Shown here: piece by piece, positions 53,149 to 63,812 of the stretch | Layout of the letters: every line of letters starts with the position of its first letter | Numbering within the stretch: position 1 is the stretch's first letter | Assembly (NCBI GenBank): GCA_022813865.1 | Contig: JALDZX010000019.1 | Coordinates: forward strand, 310,001-374,000 | DNA length: 64,000 nucleotides | Source of the DNA: Xylographa opegraphella | Taxonomy: Eukaryota | Direction of reading: 5' to 3' | Notes under the pieces: model-generated | The model's input: only the letters and a program-made list of their open reading frames with translations | Told to the model about the DNA's origin: nothing | The model's database searches: none | Translations under genes and position numbers: made by a program

Positions 53149-55418
53149 TCAGGACGAGCAAGTATTTTCCTCTCCTGAACCGCCTGTTTGTCCCGGCCCG
53201 GCCTCATCCGTACCACTCGGCCTCACCATCGTCGTGAATCCAGATGGCGTGGCGGTATACCCCGGAATAAGTTGCGTAGTTTCACCGGTTGGTGCAGGAG
53301 CAAAGGAGTAGATCTCGGTCGTAGAAGCCGCTGTATCAACCGAGACGGTGGTTGTAGAGGGTGTGACTGATGATTCAGCCGCGTATAGATTCGCTGATGT
53401 CGAAGTACTGATTGTGGTCGGAGCCGGGACGTAGCTGTACTCGAAGGTTGTGGATGCGAAGACACTGATGGAGGCTGGGGTGGAGGTGGAGTAGAGCGCA
53501 GGGCCGGAGTCAGAGCTGGAGGCTGGAGTGTACGCATACGCGTAGGCTGTCGATGTCGACGAAGTAGGGAGATCACCGGAACCAGATGTTGGGCTTAGGG
53601 TGCAGGCGCATGTAGTGGATACAGCTGAATCAGAATATGTAATCGCAGCAGCGCTAAACGAGTATGGAAAGGACGTCGTCGAGACGGAGCTTGTAGAGAT
53701 CGTGGATACGGCTGAATCAAATGTAACCGCAGCAGCGCTAAACGAGTAGGGAAAGGATGTCGTCGAGACGGAGCTTGTAGAGATCGTGGATACGGCTGAA
53801 TCAGATGTCACCGCTGCGGCGCTAAATGAATATGGAAAAGACGTCGTCGAGACCGAGCTCGAGGAGATCGTGGATACAGGGAAGCCAGGATATGTGACTG
53901 CAGCGGCGCTAAATGAATACGGAAAAGACGTCGTCGAGACCGAGCTCGAGGAGATCGTGGATACAGGGGAACCAGGATATGTGACTGCAGCGGCGCTAAA
54001 TGAATATGGAAAAGACGTCGTCATCGGGACGGAGCTTGTAGAACCTGTAGAGTATAGGGGAACACTATCGACGGTTGATGACATAGAGGTTGTCGTAGCT
54101 TGTGTTGCTATGGTCTCGAGACTCCTGGTCGCTGAAGAATCAGTGGCACTCGTGGTTGTCGCTAGGCTAGTCGCAGTAGTTGAAGCCGGAACTGTAGTGG
54201 TGGAATTAGACCCAGTAGCACCCCTAGCGAAACATTGAGAAACGAGCTCTTGATCTGTCCAACCCCCCGCAGCGTTGCCAGAAGGAGTCATTGACAGGAC
54301 GTAATCTGTTGCAAATGACCCGGCGGCCCAGCCGGTGTAGCCCAGGTAAACGTCGGAATTGGCGTCAAGGTAACTGAGTGCCTGACAGACCGCAACTAAG
54401 CAGTCGGCATTGGAGCTTCCTCCGCCAGTCTCAGAGAGAAGCGCTTGACGGTTGTTGGCACGGAGATAGTCCGCCAGAGGACTGAATGATGTATCAATCT
54501 GATTGGAGACACAGTCTGCGCTGGTGCCAGAGCCATCCGAGTCGAAATACTTGTGGACGTCGAAGACAAGGTTCGTCTTGGAGCCGTCTGGATTAGTAAC
54601 GTCACAAAGTGCTGCTGCGGAACCTCCAGAAACGAAAGACTCGGCAGATGTATAGTCGTTCCCTGGAAGTAGGATAATCTGTGAGGTGGCGCCAGCAGTT
54701 CGAATGGCAGTTACTGCCGCTTGCACGGAAGCTGCCCACAGATGGATATCAGGCACTGGTCATGTTATTTAGTATGGTCAAAGTCGATCGGAGAAACAAC
54801 GGCTTACAATCATGAGGCTCGTTCATGAGTCCAAACAAGACCTTACTCTCTGAAGCATACTTAGTAGCCAGCTGACTCCAGAGACTGGCAAATTGATCAT
54901 TTGTTGGCCCGCCCTGGCCAATGATTGCTCCATTCCAGCGAGCATAGTTATGAATGTCAATCAGACAATGACTCCCTGTCGCCAGACAAGCCTGAACGAT
55001 CATATCGTAATTCTCAGAATATGTCGAATCCAGGGGTCCACCGAGGACGTTGTTGACCAGGTATTGCCATGCGACCGGCAGACGGTACAGGTTAAAGTTG
55101 TTAGCATTGGTGAAGTGAAGCATCTGGCCAGCCCCATCTGGCCCATTAAGTTCACGCAGAGCGCCATAAACATTGGTGGTAATGCATGTTCCCTGGGAGG
55201 GTTTTAGCATTCGGATCAAGCAGCGACTTGAGAGTTGAATAGCTAACACACATCTGTGGAGCATCCAAAATCGAACCTAGGCTTGATTAGCAAGACCAAA
55301 TGCACTCGAGTACTCGTATATCATACCCGGCAATGTTCACGCCCTTGAATTGAACAGCAGCAAGAACACTACTTAGGTTCACGACTATAATGGACCCCAA
55401 AAGAAAGTGGAACAACAT
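53149..55418 (-). CDS. Secreted GH5 (subfamily 5, Cel5A/EG II-like) endoglucanase with a long Ser/Thr tail and no CBM1; 3 introns
   Basis: Signal peptide, GVNIAGFDFGCSTDGTC (across a 25-nt exon), RLPVAWQYL, DIHNYARW, acid/base MNEPHD, DVHKYFDSD.SGT, nucleophile LSETGGG and WAAGSF. Confidence 0.93.
53616..54040 (-). repeat. Coding tandem repeat, 5 copies with 84-87 bp period
   Basis: Unit GC(A/G)GCGCTAAA..GA.TA.GGAAA.GA.GTCGTC recurs near 53644, 53728, 53812, 53899 and 53986, encoding TTSFPYSFSAAAVT....VSTIS.SSVS. Confidence 0.95.
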
Positions 55419-56519
55419 AGCTAGAACGAATGTGTGGTAGAAATCAAAGCTGTAAAGAATGTTAGTGATCTTCACAAATTCACAATAAAACCAGTCAAGC
55501 AAAACAAGAGGGACAAGAACGACGAGCGCGTATGCAGATGAAACGAACGGAGCATGGCATACTCTTGTATCCCTTAGCTTGTCAGAACACAATCATTTCC
55601 CCGGACATAGAGTCGTTCAAATATCCGCTATTGGTCGGCAGCAGCTTCAAGCAAGAGCGGGATGCCTCGTACGCTCCGCAGCCATGGGGGGGCGCTTGTC
55701 GCAACACAACTTACATTTCCGCGTCCATTAAGAGCGAGATTGGATGAAGCCATAGGAAGCGTTGTAATAGCAGCTGGGGAGCATGCTGAGCTCGGCACGG
55801 ATATCCTATGCTTGCCACACGGCATCAAGCTTGAGCTTAGGCTCGTCCCCTTCATCACTCGGAGGGGGGATCTCGGATGATGGATTCAAAGCCATAAGCA
55901 GCAGACTGGCCGAGACACAATTCGGCCGTCTGACGAAATTGGGGGCATTCGGGGCGAGGAGGAGAAGCTGGAGGGGAGGACTGGCGGCGTTTCATGTAGC
56001 GATCCAAGCAATTCGACCGCGGCAGAAACAACGTTCTTATCCCACCCGTGTGCTTGTTTCATCAAACTTGGGAACAATCGGCCAGCTCTACAGGCCGTGA
56101 AGTCAGCGTAGACCTCGGACCAATTATGATGCGATCATCTATCCCGGTCAACGCCCTGCCTCCTTTTGTATCACGTTGCGTCAATCATGTCGCCAAGTCA
56201 TATGCATGGCTCTTTGGGGGCACTAATGTCAAAAATTGTTTGTCATACAGAATCTCCAGCTCGCCGAGCAACTCAAGCAAGCGCCGGCAGTAAAAGGTGA
56301 ATACATATTGGTATGAAATTACGGGTCTTTTTGGCCCAGCTACAATTTAGTTACATGATTCACCCTCATCCACACGCCAAGAAGCCACCACAACGTCCTG
56401 TTGCAAGACTTTCCAGTCACGGTGCTTCTCGCTTTCTAGTGATTCTCATGCCCTTTCGGACGATATCCGAAGCCGTCTGAAGACAAATCCCACGCACGGA
56501 GTGAGAGGACAGTTCAGTG

Positions 56520-58736
56520 TTAAGCTCCCGGTGGTGGGGGAGGCGGCAAATCGCTTGGAGGCTATCAACTGTTAGTGACTATTGATCGTTCTGGTTGGGT
56601 GTAAGACTTACCGGAGGGGGAGGAGCATCCCCAGGCGGCGGAGGAGGTGGAGGATTTCCCGCAGAGCCGTTGCCATTGTACTGGAACAGTGCATTGAGCC
56701 CGGGTGGAGCACCAAGACCCACCGCGGCCAGTCCAGGAGGAGCACCCATACCTCCAGCGTATCCATTACCGTTACCATAGCCTGGGTAGGCCCCGTAACC
56801 ACCCGGAGGCGGAGGAGGAGGCGCAGCTTGCTGTTGCCAGGGAGCAGCGCCGCTGTTCTGCTGCCCATGGCCATAGCTGTCCCCACCACGCCCAGCAGCG
56901 GCCCACGGCGGAGCAGATCCACCATCTGGAGCACCATAATCATCACGATGACTACGATCGTCTCCCCCGCGTTGCCAAGGCGCTGCTGCGCCTGTGGGTC
57001 CACGTTGCCACGGCTTAAGATCACCTCGATCACCTTCACCGTATCCATCTTGATTGTCATAGCCTCCAGGCCCTGCTTCGATGCGCTGAGGAGCTTGCCC
57101 ATTGGCGGCAGGGGCACCACCAGAAAGTTCTTGCATGAGTTGCTGTGGAATGTTAGGATGTGATATTTACCCAGAAAGGTTTGACTGACCTCATATTCCC
57201 GATCAACAGCATCACCACCACCAATACGTCCTGCGGGCGCACGATCAGGACCACCAATAGGCGGGCCGTTACGCCAGTCAGCTCCACGCTGCCTATCAGG
57301 ACAGTCTCGAGCCATATGTCCTGCGTTGCCACACACTCTGCAAATGATGTTGGCCGTGAAATTGCGCTGTTCAGGACAATCGTATTTGCGGTGACCGATT
57401 TGGCCACCTATGAGTATTAGAAGCTGTCGAAGATTTCAACTGGTATTGCAATCTGTACTTACAGTTTTGACAAGCTTGATTCTCGTCATCGCGCAATGTT
57501 CCGTTGAGAGCTGCAAGCTCTCGAAGCTGGTTTCGTTTGAGCTCATTCTGTCCCTCGGGGATCGAGGCAGCCTTCGTAGCGTTAGCAGGTCACGAGTTGC
57601 TAGCGTTCCGCTGAACTTACTGTTTCAATGACATTGTGGATCAACTTCTTTGCTTTGTTAACTTTTTCTTCGGTATCGGCCATTATCAAACAATGCAAAT
57701 CTTCTTCCTGGTTACTGGTGTGAGCAGCATCAGATCGACCTTTTCCTTCTTTGACTGATCCTTTCCCACGAATGGCAATCTTGGCTTGCGACTCAGTCTC
57801 CATCTTTTTAAGTGTATTGCCTCGAGGCCCGATAAGTAAGCCGACTTCAGTACACGAACGCAAGCTAAGTGTTAGTCTATGTAGGTCAATACGTATAGCA
57901 ATGTGTATGTAATATGAGCAGGGTTAGTGGTAACATATGCTGCTTCCTTCGTGAAAAGCGGCAAGCATCGACAAAAAGCATGATGAGAAAATAAGAAAAG
58001 AGGTTAGGAGTTAGAGGGTTAGTTATCATACTGAAGTTAATCTCTGGGTAGTCATTGACAGGTACATAGACTTTCTCCTGTGTCTTAGTAGGACGTCTGT
58101 AGTCCGAGGGCGGATGATAGTTAGGAATAATCTTCATGGCTTTCTCAATCTGCCTGTGGCGCTCATCTTCAAGACGCTTGCGATACCGGTATTCGCGTGT
58201 GTTCACGCGACGACCAAAGTTATCATACTGAGGTGGAGGAGACGGAGACCTATATCCATCCATGAGTTCTTGTTCTAGCTTACGGGGAAAGGGTACGAAC
58301 CTATCACCATCTGCAGGAACAACATCATCTATTCTTAGCTTCTCGCTAATCTCTTGAATCCGTAGATGCAACGTGTAAGCCTCAAGCTGTTCGTTAGTCA
58401 TATTCGCCTTGATCATAGTAGGCAATCCCATCAAGCCAGCAGCTTTATTTTCAGATGCATCTCCCCATCGATTTCTCTTCTTGCGTCGCCTCTCACCCGC
58501 ATCAACAGGATCGGCTTCGCAGCAGTTAGTTGTATGGTTCCTCCTAAGAGAGCCAAAGACCTACGACGCTCTGGACTACGGCCACGCTTATAGCCATCGG
58601 ACAAGCCAGTCGGAGGCTGAGCTGCACTGTAGCCACCACCATCGTCACCAGGTGTAGAGTCGCCTCCAAAGCGACGGCGATTGCCTAGAGGAATGTTATT
58701 CGAGCCGGTGATTCCCTGACCTCTCTGCCACGCCAT
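56520..58736 (-). CDS. MSL5: Branchpoint-bridging protein / splicing factor 1 (BBP/SF1); 7 introns
   Basis: [29 protein letters not shown]2 ([19 protein letters not shown]...[11 protein letters not shown]), two CCHC zinc knuckles and a Pro-rich tail. Confidence 0.96.
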
Positions 58737-59245
58737 GATAGAGGTAGTGGCGCTTGCGTAATCTTGAGGGTTTGAAGTTGTAGAGGAGAGCCGATGAAAG
58801 GTGAAGTTGTGTCTTAGGCGCGTTATTTCATTCTAAGACAAATGGGGTTTGGCGCAAAGGTAATGGCCCCCTTCCCGTCCGCCCTCGGCCGTATCCTTGG
58901 CCCCTTTTCAACTGCAAGTCGTGCAACACGATTCACTACCACTTTTCTAAGAATATGATTACTTGATCGTAAGACCTGAAACCGTGAGTTTATTATTAAT
59001 GGGCTAGTCCAATAATTCCTGGATCCAAAATATCGCAAATCAGATGCCTAGCTTGGCTAGAATACCCAACGTAACCATTCCCACAATTTCTATCTTGCAT
59101 AGAGGTGAATCTGGAAAAAACATCACCACCATCAAGCGTTCTAGCCAGCCAGGAGCTGCAGAGCCGACCTTACCGAAATAATGTTCATGTGGATTAAGTC
59201 CCTTTCTCATTATTCTTATACTTCCGTGTTTCCTTTAGGACTGCT

Positions 59246-60265
59246 TCAAGCAGCATCAACGAGTCTCGCTCCCTCATCACGTCCGTTCGCTGTACGGTTA
59301 CCAGAATTCGTTCGTTCTGGCTCATCGAGGAACCTACCACCTCCCGTTCCCTCTTCGTCATCTCTTTCCTCACCTATTATTCTTCCTCCGTTTAGCCTCC
59401 CAAATTCGCCCTGCCCCCTTTCGCCACGAAACCATTCGGGTCTGATTCTCACAGCCAATAAGAACATAATCTAGCGAATAGTATGTCAGCTGCGTTGAAC
59501 TCTCTCAAGGTCTCTTGTGTGTGGCAACAACTGATTGATACAGAGACCCCCAAAGGATTGTTTCGCTGACCTGCATCACCAGAACACCTACGCCCACACC
59601 GACTACCATCCCAAGTATGGACCTCCCCTCCGCCGTCCAAATTGCTTCGCAGGATTCATTTCGCCCGAACCTTTGTATGCATGCCTCTGCAACCACTCCT
59701 TTGGCAGGGAAAGGCCATGCCATGTGCTTAACGGTACTGAACCCGCAGCACTCCAACGAATCCTGGATTGCTTTCACCGCGCTCTCGTTCTTTTCTTGAA
59801 ACATTTGCTTCCATCGAGACTCCAGTCCACATGTGAGAGTCGGTTCTGACAGCGCCGTTGAAGCGAGCGTGATGAGGAGAGTGTCAAGCATAAAGAGCAC
59901 AGTTATAGCTATCTCGCGGGATGGGACAATAAAGCGAGTACATGATGCGGAAAAAGCTTTACCACCGGTCAATCGAAGCATGGGACGAGGTGGACCTCTT
60001 GCAACCGCAAAGAGGATAGCATTGGTAAGGAAAGGGAGGATAATAGCTAGAACTTCGGTCGTAATAGAGGCTGGGAGGAAGAATGTACGGGCACGAATAG
60101 AGGCAACAACGGCGAGAATCGTAAGCGCGAGAGACGGCTACACAATAAATCTCGTTAGTAGACATTTTGGCCGAGACCTCCATCATGACGAAATTGTTGC
60201 AAGCCGATGGAAGGAGTGCGCTCACGTACTAGAAATGTAACGGCAAAAGTAATGAAGCTGTGCAT
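59246..60265 (-). CDS. Fungal tetraspanin (Tsp3-like); 2 introns
   Basis: Four hydrophobic segments and a large loop with LTCGLESRWKQMF...IQDSLECCGF...AWPFP...C...C. Exon 1 MHSFITFAVTFL splices in frame. Confidence 0.8.
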
Positions 60266-60592: not shown

Positions 60593-62926
60593 CTACTTCA
60601 TTGCTGAACCATCCAGCGGGTGAACCCAGTCGTTCTGGAGATCCAAATCAAGCATGGATGCCCAATCTGTGCCAACGTCCAAATATGAATAGTCAGAAAT
60701 TGGAAAGCTATAATTGTTGAATGATACGAACGGATCTGCGTCCAGCTCCACTCCTTCACTGGCTGATTCTCCTAGTGTCAGGAGTTGACTGCCGAGACTT
60801 GTCGTCGAAGGCGATGGCGTGGTCATCCGCGGCTTGCCAATGCGAATTCTTCCGAAGTACGGTATGGTCACTTGGTACGCCTCAGGGGTATTATACTCAT
60901 TGCACCCGTAACGGGCGTCACCGAATTGACGAAGGACCTGAGCGGCTTGGATAGCCACGGGAGAAATCCTTTCCACGCCAATAGTCTCGAAATCTTCCCT
61001 GATGCTATTCACAAGATCCCAGTCGCTGTCTTCTTGGATAAGATCCCTACGCCCACGATTGTTGGCATGCTGATTGAGAAGATCGAGAACAAGTACCATC
61101 GAAGCCGTAAAGGCTTCGAAATCGATGAGATTGCACACTAGGAGAGCGCCGTTCGCCCGTAGAATCTGGTAGCATTTGATCATTTCTCTTGAAGATTCGA
61201 GCCCACTGATTCTGCTCATCTCGTAACGGCGATCGGTGAACGACTTCAACAGATACGGAAGGTGAAGTAGCTTCCGGTCATTGTGATACAAAAATTTAGC
61301 GACAAACATATCACGAACGACATTAGCGGCCATACCAGGTATCGGCAGAGCTTCCCACCATCCGGGTGGCATGGAATTCCGAGCCTCTTCCAGTTCTTGG
61401 TCGATTTTGAGGGTGTCAATCAGGGACGCATTGTTGAGGTCGCTGTTTCGATGTATTATATGTCCTGCAATCACACTCAACTTGGATAGAAGGCCATCTC
61501 CGTACCGCCCAGCTTGCTCTTCATCTGCAAAGTTCTTACGATTGAAGTCATTGTCCAGTGTCGAGTAAGGAAGGCCCAAAATGAGGGAGAGATGTCGGTC
61601 GCCTAGCGACATCTGAAACCAAAGGTCCGCTTTCCGCTTCGCCAGGGGATCAGTCGTGCTTCGGACTGGTCGATGAATACCCACGAAGTACGCGAGCCCA
61701 GTGGCCCTCCGTCCCAGTAGCCAGGCCTTTCGAGGTTTTCCTTCGTCGACATAGAAACGAATCTGCAGCACCATGCACTCCAATCCATCAAGGGTAGAAG
61801 CTAGGCCTTCCTCTGAAGCAAGCAGGGTTTCCACGAAAGCCATGTAGCGTTTCTGAAGCACGTCTGGTTTTGTGGGTAAATTCCATTGACCATGGCCAAA
61901 TCGTCCAGATAATTGCTGAAAACAGACGGCCATACAAATCAGAATCTTCGCAGTATCGCCGACATTGCCCGAATCTAGACACTGTCGTATATGATTCCTC
62001 AGACGGGTGATCTGATCGGTCTCGGTCTCATAAGTCCTGGGCACTAGCATATTGGGAAAATACTTCTGCCAATTCTGCCAACAGCAAAGACAGAGGCGAA
62101 TGATCTGTGTCAAGTCATCGTCATTTGGCACGAGAGCTTTCACGGCCATCGGAATCCGAGATCCTGTATCAAAAAATGGCTGGAACGTCCTGCTTCCTGC
62201 ATCGAGCGAGCTGTTTTCAGTCTCGTTACGAGCATCAACCATCGTGTCGGCTTCCTGTCGTATGACCGCATTGTCAAAGAGGCTAAGCAAAGGCGCGCTG
62301 TCGAAAGAATGAGGCGGGATCGAGGTCACTGTTTCTCCTTGCAAGTGGGCGATGCCACCCTCGGGACTCTGGCTTCGTTCGTCGCTGGCACCGCTTGGAG
62401 AAGGGGATATGCCCAGCTGGAGTGTTTCGAGAGCTTCGGCGGCGCTCATATCCGGATACCCAGTCCGCACGACATATTTGGCGGTGTCTAATCTTTGGAG
62501 TATCTGGGTCACCATTTTTTCCAGCTTGTCTGCCCTGTCACGCACCGTCCGTGGCCGACCGGCGGGGCGTGATTTAGCATCCGAATATTCTTGCGGAACA
62601 CAGCGCGTTCCTCTTGTAGTACAGCCGGCGCATACACGAGTATTGGAATCGGAAATACATTTTATCTTTCGCCGACGACATTCCACGCAGCTATGTGTGC
62701 CTTTCCGCACTTTGGAAAGAGAATCAAGCCTAACCTTAGTTTTGTGCATGGTATTGATGTCGCGAGAAGCTATGTATAACAAATTAACGGAGGCTGGAGG
62801 CAGGAAACGGGAGAAGCTCTGGAGAAGTCCGTCCGAGATAGGCTCGTAGTGTTGCAGGTAATGCACAGTAGTTTGATGCCTGGGTACATTCGTCGGCGTC
62901 TTTCGTCCGTTTTTCGTCCGCGACAT
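60593..62926 (-). CDS. Zn2Cys6 transcription factor with fungal TF middle-homology region (start may be ATG about 62749)
   Basis: VRKGTHSCVECRRRKIKC....CAGCTTRGTRC; GKPRKAWL, DRHLSLILGLP and LLHLPYL. Confidence 0.92.
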   Translation of the reverse strand: MSRTKNGRKTPTNVPRHQTTVHYLQHYEPISDGLLQSFSRFLPPASVNLLYIASRDINTMHKTKVRLDSLSKVRKGTHSCVECRRRKIKCISDSNTRVCAGCTTRGTRCVPQEYSDAKSRPAGRPRTVRDRADKLEKMVTQILQRLDTAKYVVRTGYPDMSAAEALETLQLGISPSPSGASDERSQSPEGGIAHLQGETVTSIPPHSFDSAPLLSLFDNAVIRQEADTMVDARNETENSSLDAGSRTFQPFFDTGSRIPMAVKALVPNDDDLTQIIRLCLCCWQNWQKYFPNMLVPRTYETETDQITRLRNHIRQCLDSGNVGDTAKILICMAVCFQQLSGRFGHGQWNLPTKPDVLQKRYMAFVETLLASEEGLASTLDGLECMVLQIRFYVDEGKPRKAWLLGRRATGLAYFVGIHRPVRSTTDPLAKRKADLWFQMSLGDRHLSLILGLPYSTLDNDFNRKNFADEEQAGRYGDGLLSKLSVIAGHIIHRNSDLNNASLIDTLKIDQELEEARNSMPPGWWEALPIPGMAANVVRDMFVAKFLYHNDRKLLHLPYLLKSFTDRRYEMSRISGLESSREMIKCYQILRANGALLVCNLIDFEAFTASMVLVLDLLNQHANNRGRRDLIQEDSDWDLVNSIREDFETIGVERISPVAIQAAQVLRQFGDARYGCNEYNTPEAYQVTIPYFGRIRIGKPRMTTPSPSTTSLGSQLLTLGESASEGVELDADPFVSFNNYSFPISDYSYLDVGTDWASMLDLDLQNDWVHPLDGSAMK

Positions 62927-63812
62927 TGGTAAGCGATAAGTAGGGGGCTTCGGGGGTTTATTGACCGATTATTCATGCTTACAAGTAAGATACGTCGTAG
63001 GTTCACGAACTTTGCCATAGTCTCTTAAGTCAAACTTTCGCTGCATTGTTACTGTTCATTCCGAGATACCAGACCGAGTTCCTGAATGACCTCTGGAGTA
63101 CAACCGTTGAAGGCGAGTCCCAGGACTATCCCAGGGCTAAAAATTCTGAGCGGCGGTTGGTTGTCATCTAAGAATAGATTTGAATCCCCGCTGTCTGACA
63201 CTTGAACTCCTCATACACGTAAAGTACCGAAGGTGCGGTATGTAAAGTAGACTGGGGAGTTCGTGGTGATCACCGCCAGTCTCCCGGTTTGATATCGTCG
63301 GAGATACCGAATGCTGGTGTTCCGTATCTCCAGTAACTCCATCGGATTAGACCACTGGTCACTTCAAGGAACTGCCTCACTACTGCTTACCTACCTAGCC
63401 TGAGCTCGATGAGTCAATCAAAGCTTGCTGACAGCCGTCTGCTCACGGAAATAGTCGGACATCCTTCGGACCAAAATTCGGACGAAGAGAGAAAGAGTTG
63501 CGCAACTGGCAGCCTAATCCATGCAGAATGGTCGAAGGCAAGGCAGGTAATTACGATTGGCGCCTAGTCTCGCGTGCGCCCTTGATGTGCCGTTCGTGTC
63601 ATGAAATGCATAGTCGAAGATCATGGTAAGCAGGGCCGACGAAGGATTTGGTTGACGAGGAGGAAGAAGTATATATTCATGCACTACGAGCTCCATTTCC
63701 ATTCTCTGCCAATCCGGCCCTCAGTCATCATCTGCTGCTTCTCTAGGGAATTCCTACCCTCTTCTCGTCGTTCGTTGCCCATTCTCTATTCTTCACGTAT
63801 CTCTCAGTCAAC

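Follow-up and report, generated by a model that had tools for sequence, protein, structure and literature searches.

It is well established that SR and hnRNP proteins regulate themselves through unproductive splicing, as do a few yeast genes. A fungal example is srp2/SRSF5, a splicing-factor gene in which a long intron is retained and leads to NMD (Lareau and Brenner 2015, PMC4379411, accessible text), and other described systems with bearing on the present case are the yeast genes YRA1, RPL30, RPS14B and RPS9 (PMC11585973), animal QKI (PMC13004596) and Arabidopsis SF1 (PMC12746065). For the branchpoint-bridging protein (BBP), the accessible parts of the literature state that UACUAAC is bound by the KH-QUA2 region of Msl5, its core CUAAC being common to SF1 and QKI, that BBP must be ejected before U2 pairs (both PMC4338336), and that BBP-Mud2 influences the retention and abundance of pre-mRNA (PMC2377449). 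The intron described here suggests that BBP may be subject to a related kind of control through copies of its own recognition sequence.

The window analysed is a 64,000-nucleotide stretch of the Xylographa opegraphella genome, and it contains a BBP/SF1 (Msl5) ortholog in which an SF1 helix-hairpin is followed by a BBP-type KH domain and zinc knuckles. Pfam families PF16275 and PF22675 (SF1-HH and KH-I_KHDC4-BBP) match the exons flanking intron 3, with the upstream exon corresponding to SF1-HH and the downstream one entering the BBP-type KH profile at position 10. Pfam also finds zf-CCHC in a full-length homolog (P0231), and two CCHC motifs can be seen by sight in the translation from the window. 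A search of the X. opegraphella genome returned one copy of the gene. Its relevant features, all on the minus strand, are as follows.

56520..58736, minus strand: BBP/SF1 (branchpoint-bridging protein) gene, 8 exons and 7 introns (translation, intron ends, Pfam)
58032..58249, minus strand: exon 3, end of the SF1 helix-hairpin and KH beta-1 (…YPEINF) (translation, Pfam)
57845..58031, minus strand: intron 3, 187 nt, phase 1, splitting the KH domain (translation; the same junction is spliced in transcript-like homologs)
58026..58031, minus strand: donor GTATGA (GTATGA or GTACGA in 28/38 versions)
58003..58023, minus strand: three clustered CTAAC close to the donor (the RCTAAC consensus purine is present in the first copy alone)
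57973..58002, minus strand: pyrimidine tract directly 3′ of the cluster (pyrimidine content across homologs)
57937..57968, minus strand: possible hairpin spacer, weakly supported (folding runs)
57923..57928, minus strand: mid-intron ACTAAC (in 32/38 versions; 34–79 nt ahead of the branch site)
57885..57889, minus strand: weak second branch-like site TTGAC, 14 nt ahead of the main branch A and overlapping the stop codon of the retained form
57877..57879, minus strand: TAG at −32 (not conserved)
57871..57876, minus strand: main branch site ACTAAC, inferred branch A at 57872 (in 38/38 versions)
57865..57867, minus strand: proximal TAG, 7 nt past the branch A, not used by the productive form (spacing of 5–7 nt in 38/38)
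57853..57864, minus strand: pyrimidine-rich spacer separating the two AGs (mean 86% pyrimidine over 9 nt)
57845..57851, minus strand: productive acceptor overlapping an ACTRA motif (ACTGAAG here; ACTAAAG or ACTAACAG in most homologs)
57621..57844, minus strand: exon 4, remainder of the KH domain (GLLIGPRG…) (translation, Pfam)

The preliminary description of this locus placed a 187-nt GT..AG intron at 58031 to 57845 of the minus strand, interrupting the Ile codon of EINF/IGLLIG in the KH domain, and this placement proved correct. The intron was said to be about three times as long as its siblings, and it is indeed longer, although the factor is 3.4–4, with the other six introns of the gene measuring 50, 51, 49, 55, 47 and 50 nt. 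Five CTAAC motifs had been noted, three of them stacked near the donor, and all are present, at intron positions 10, 18, 25, 105 and 157, the three near the donor being those at 10, 18 and 25 (the coordinates listed for them earlier are low ends on the plus strand). Among 5000 dinucleotide shuffles of the intron, CTAAC occurs 0.46 times on average, five copies are reached in none, and three copies fall inside positions 6–32 in only one. Two elements had been overlooked, an ACTGA on the acceptor (57851–57847) and the weak branch-like TTGAC (57889–57885). Judged by its composition, the cluster together with the pyrimidine tract, which contains no AG, is a candidate BBP-U2AF65-type site misplaced beside the donor.

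Other parts of the gene and its surroundings also deserve mention. Intron 2 (58250–58300, minus strand) has the donor GTTCGT and no CTRAY, and its 51 nt are a multiple of three with no in-frame stop, such that its retention would insert 17 residues in the SF1 helix-hairpin region; homologous ORFs often read through it in frame. In exon 3, 12 nt that encode QYDN (58219–58230, minus strand) repeat the sequence around the intron 3 donor and could be a cryptic donor; the repeat is probably dictated by the codons. Neighbouring genes on the minus strand include one at 53149–55600 with a long Ser/Thr-rich tail of about five imperfect repeats, which we take to resemble a GH5 endoglucanase, a membrane-protein gene upstream of BBP at 59505–60137 with a CCG motif that looks tetraspanin-like by eye, and a Zn2Cys6-type transcription factor ORF of 791 codons from stop to stop at 60593–62968.

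Homologs were sought with exon 3 alone, so that no selection was placed on the intron sequence. Of 415 candidate stretches, 278 proved to be relatives, and the best 80 of these were kept; among the 80, 71 have a full intron 3, six are without the intron and three are without the downstream exon. The 71 introns and that of the window, 72 in all, were reduced to 38 versions at less than 85% identity (the window and 37 homologs), which are related by descent and not independent. As controls we used the 79 other BBP-gene introns that could be cut from the same loci. Intron 3 is 128–245 nt long in the 38 versions (mean 186), whereas control means are 51–54. CTAAC lies within positions 6–32 in 37 of the 38 versions and in one of 79 controls, and at least two copies lie there in 36/38 versus 0/79. 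Pairwise identity over positions 7–24 is 0.69 for intron 3 versus 0.27–0.28 for controls, and over +7 to +22 it reaches 0.73, whereas four-fold sites in the exons on either side give 0.42; restricting the comparison to pairs whose silent identity is under 0.45 (468 of 703) leaves the intron value at 0.70.

The first cluster copy is preceded by a purine in 37/38 versions, and the second has a pyrimidine there in 32/36. The 38 introns together hold 175 CTAAC in the sense strand and none in the antisense strand. The 20 nt after the cluster average 82% pyrimidine (37 introns) versus 64% in controls, a mid-intron CTRAY is present in 32/38 versions, and the acceptor is AAG in 24/38 versus 5/79 control introns. 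The weak AAG noted earlier at this acceptor is not special within the window gene itself, where introns 1 and 4 end in AAG too (3/7 introns), and it was rejected as the key feature for this gene. On the main point, the comparison across homologs that had been proposed came out in favor of the element, since cluster, length and 3′ layout are all kept far above silent sites and controls. These alignments show that intron 3 is under purifying selection; the element is real, conserved and probably regulatory. The pattern of a donor plus two CTAAC has one other match in the 24.7-Mb genome of the species, and this match looks like the 3′ end of a short intron of the usual type.

Two protein searches used the read-through frame as query and hence select for intron-reading proteins; with that proviso, 120/120 and 119/120 among the matches listed enter the same intron start. 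Genera named among them are Aspergillus, Penicillium, Clarireedia, Calycina, Polychaeton, Lophiostoma, Daldinia, Colletotrichum, Trichoderma and Physcia, which presumably cover five classes of Pezizomycotina. One genomic locus (L080) is without intron 3 and keeps its other introns, of which introns 1 and 2 are longer than usual. Because its sister on the tree (L070) has intron 3, the intron was lost in L080 and is thus dispensable in at least one lineage. That lineage offers a natural control.

Retention of intron 3 ends translation, as had been stated, with a stop after 48 codons in the window and a stop within the retained intron in 38/38 versions. The product drops the KH domain and keeps the N-terminus, and a retention-type product (P0127) matches SF1-HH only in Pfam. 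Ten contigs from homologs are transcript-like in that all other checked introns are absent. In five of these (L002, L026, L029, L048 and L060) intron 3 is spliced at the distal acceptor position, and in the other five (L039, L049, L064, L071 and L079) it is retained while the other checked introns are removed. L029 and L048 are identical over the exon stretch compared, as are L039 and L049, and the contigs therefore represent four organisms with the spliced form and four with the retained form. The retained contig L079 has a poly(A) end, and its close relative L060 splices intron 3. These contigs place the retained RNA in relatives rather than in X. opegraphella, and they give presence, no ratios. 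Left out of the count were L036, where intron 1 is present too, L054, L063 and L068, where the downstream exon was not found, and L080, a genomic loss.

Intron 3 also accounts for many truncated or mis-joined public models of this essential gene, which is often mis-annotated. Among the 120 matches listed, 52 proteins have intron 2 removed and end in intron 3, a figure that includes many gene models favored by the query and is not a transcript count. Many named NCBI models (P0126–P0237) read into intron 3 and stop, and 8 of the 120 listed models regain the KH exon by an invented junction.

In all 38 versions a YAG lies 5–7 nt past the branch A, the true acceptor lies 20–29 nt past it, and CTRA falls within the last 9 nt in 31/38 versus 1/79 controls. 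Among the 62 controls bearing CTRAY, the distance from this five-mer to the intron end is never below 8 nt, compared with 4–6 nt to the proximal AG here, and in Neurospora 96% of introns have 9–25 nt from branch point to acceptor (PMC4408805, accessible text). By these control gaps and the Neurospora range, the branch site is flanked by one AG that is too near and another that is at or past the normal far limit. An NTRAY occurs in the 18 nt ahead of the branch site in 23/38 versions (mostly as TTGAY) versus 8/38 for the adjacent window and 14/62 controls. From this weak site to the proximal AG there are 21 nt in the window and 16–24 nt in most of the 23 versions; the proximal YAG is thus too near the main branch site, yet at a normal distance from the weak one in most of the 23. 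We take the proximal AG to belong to a conserved module by which the choice of acceptor is hampered or read out. In a stwintron, removal of the inner intron recreates the donor, branch site or acceptor of the outer intron (PMC6616335, accessible text); checked by eye, the sequence that follows the proximal AG restores no donor.

Of the features that mark autoregulatory unproductive splicing, those at the level of sequence were found here, namely a splicing factor as host, a premature stop, an otherwise processed RNA that retains the intron in relatives, and conserved motifs of the type that the host protein recognizes. We consider it somewhat probable, from sequence conservation and layout, that BBP represses splicing of its own intron 3 with retention as the output, a negative autoregulation. 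The productive splice would be hard by design, since it must join a branch A to an acceptor 20–29 nt away, past an AG that is too close. If free BBP were plentiful, it would, with U2AF65, also fill the decoy module of branch sites and pyrimidines by the donor, and it would sit as well on the ACUAA at the acceptor. Spliceosome assembly would stall on occupied decoys and intron 3 would be retained, with the retained RNA being destroyed, by NMD or nuclear decay, or else giving a KH-less fragment. If BBP were scarce, the decoys would be empty and intron 3 would be spliced out. The proximal AG appears usable only from the weak upstream site, and the AG at −32 is not conserved, and for these reasons retention is taken as the main off-state, with the proximal AG as at most a minor route.

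Some observations weigh against self-repression by BBP. With no purine at −1, the second and third cluster copies may be poor binding sites for BBP. Fungi commonly retain introns, and the longer ones more often. Arabidopsis SF1 binding favors the distal AG (PMC12746065, accessible text), and a preference of this type would make the control here positive, not negative. In yeast, the KH protein Mer1 acts from a site close to the donor to enhance splicing (PMC11585973, accessible text).

A more ambitious version of self-repression, which we hold only tentatively and think somewhat unlikely, is a branch-recognition homeostat in filamentous ascomycetes. The core factor BBP would be titrated by extra branch signals placed on the two splice sites of its own KH-splitting intron, and the twin-register 3′ module (weak site with proximal AG, strong site with distal AG) would serve as a second read-out. 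The retained form would enter BBP-linked nuclear exosome decay, or would yield a U2AF65-binding, KH-less fragment that dampens early assembly on all introns.

Alternatively, intron 3 might sense branch-site recognition overall, including U2 snRNP, U2AF and the helicase that removes BBP, with decoys that soak up U2 or early complexes and an awkward 3′ module that slows splicing. BBP output would then follow splicing capacity, and BBP might even promote the distal acceptor. CUAAC doubles as the U2 pairing sequence (PMC4408805), the two registers described above, 16–24 nt from a weak TTGAY to the proximal AG and 20–29 nt from the strong site to the distal AG, would suit such a sensor, AtSF1 prefers distal AGs (PMC12746065), and yeast Bbp-Mud2 on stalled intermediates is tied to nuclear exosome decay (PMC13322074; all three from accessible text). 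However, the element sits in the BBP gene and a matching pattern is found in no other gene of the same genome, and pure positive feedback would be expected to destabilize an essential factor. We regard a general sensor as unlikely, though the likeliest of the rivals to self-repression.

One version of the preliminary description puts the main off-switch at the upstream acceptors, to which excess BBP would divert splicing, yielding frameshifted NMD targets. Both acceptors exist, the TAG at 57877 (+32 nt) giving a stop at the second codon and the TAG at 57865 (+20 nt) giving 59 codons to the stop. The one at −32 is weakly supported as a poison acceptor: an AG is there in only 16/38 versions and a YAG in 5/38, and it lies upstream of the best branch site. 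The −20 type is universal and, as noted, normally spaced from the weak upstream site, but it is nearer the main branch A than the corresponding AG in any of the 62 controls. It is out of frame in 30/38 versions and in frame in 8/38, where one third would be expected (p = 0.07), a count that gives no clear sign of selection for a frameshift. Use of either upstream acceptor was seen in 0/10 transcript-like contigs, assemblies in which NMD targets would be under-represented and rare ones missed. A search for proteins with the frameshifted −20 tail gave four candidates, none at E 0.01, the frame being poorly conserved and usually short. Upstream acceptors as the main off-switch are improbable. What stands of the feedback originally proposed is a retention isoform with conserved CTAAC elements, while the upstream acceptors fare poorly as poison outputs.

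It is also conceivable that another CUAAC-binding protein or a condition-specific regulator reads the motifs, in the manner of QKI in animals or Mer1 in yeast. Tandem ACUAAC does mediate QKI repression in competition with SF1, but the same source describes QUA1-dimerising STAR proteins as metazoan (PMC13004596, accessible text), and we find this explanation distinctly improbable.

Roles outside splicing were considered as well. Rfam gave no match over 56400–59000 up to E 5. A snoRNA was rejected on this result and on a box C motif in only 2/38 versions, and a telomere-like DNA site was rejected with CCCTAA found only 7 times and ARCCCTAA in 5/38. In 7/38 versions the first motif is displaced by 1–4 nt, and the read-through peptide is variable; the constraint therefore does not act on a peptide, and with these frame-shifting changes in the cluster, conservation of a peptide (SMITNPL) was rejected. 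Folding z-scores are +0.38 for the whole window intron and +0.3 for its mid segment, and the mid segment averages −1.3 over the 38 versions, with 11 below −2. RNAalifold on 13 hand-picked close versions preferred a different 5-pair stem, and for the named 10-pair stem 88% of cells are paired, one pair has double changes, and 19/500 shuffles reach its score. The hairpin is retained just as a possible spacer. Although the GC-rich mid segment folds below shuffles in 20/38 versions (z < −1) and CTAACCCT bears what we take to be a likeness to the telomere C-strand, a non-splicing role as an intron-borne RNA, peptide or DNA site is very improbable, given that the conserved blocks coincide with splice signals, that covariation is no better than in shuffles on most measures, and that the Rfam, box C, CCCTAA and frame results run against it.

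No paper on BBP intron 3 or on self-regulation of BBP/SF1 was found in the openly accessible literature searched; fungal RNA-seq isoform tables may list the retention. In their accessible text, PMC4666396, PMC5640933, PMC13004596, PMC9767378 and PMC13025027 do not describe the intron, the main text of the Li and Breaker survey of fungal RNA motifs (PMC5640933) has no match for BBP, branch or splicing factor, Msl5 autoregulation is absent from a review of yeast autoregulatory introns (PMC11585973), and the Arabidopsis SF1 report (PMC12746065) has no match for "autoregul", "own" or "self" that would mention self-regulation. Within this searched literature, no report describes autoregulation of the branch-point factor itself, or a comparable conserved element in an intron of filamentous fungi. 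If self-repression by BBP is correct, then a splice signal that is otherwise constitutive can also serve to sense dosage, intron 3 is a compact natural reporter of BBP activity, and the choice of AG relative to branch-site distance in fungi becomes testable.

Comparison with known systems, in each case as far as the accessible text of the source goes, shows what is shared and what is particular to this intron. In targets of Arabidopsis SF1, too, the AG nearer the branch site is skipped and the farther one is used, although the effect there is genome-wide and implies activation, not repression (PMC12746065). YRA1, RPL30, RPS14B and RPS9 are precedents for proteins that bind close to the splice sites of their own pre-mRNA and prevent its splicing, as proposed for BBP, but these proteins have other primary jobs and bind structures (PMC11585973), whereas BBP would use surplus copies of the branch signal. 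Repression through multiple ACUAAC bound by a KH-QUA2 protein, also proposed for BBP, is seen when QKI opposes SF1; QKI is a dimeric paralog that competes at real branch sites near the acceptor (PMC13004596), while most copies in BBP intron 3 cannot be branch sites, adjoin the donor, and reside in the SF1-type gene itself. Like BBP, srp2/SRSF5 of filamentous fungi encodes a splicing factor and has a single intron of unusual length, and mRNA that retains this intron contains a stop (PMC4379411). NMD has been demonstrated for srp2 (PMC4379411), whereas BBP intron 3 is known from sequence and contigs, and the srp2 product is an SR protein while BBP is a core branch-site factor. Moreover, the srp2 intron sequence is not notably conserved among Aspergillus (PMC4379411), in contrast to BBP intron 3, which is conserved across classes and, unlike the srp2 intron, is built of the host protein's own motif.
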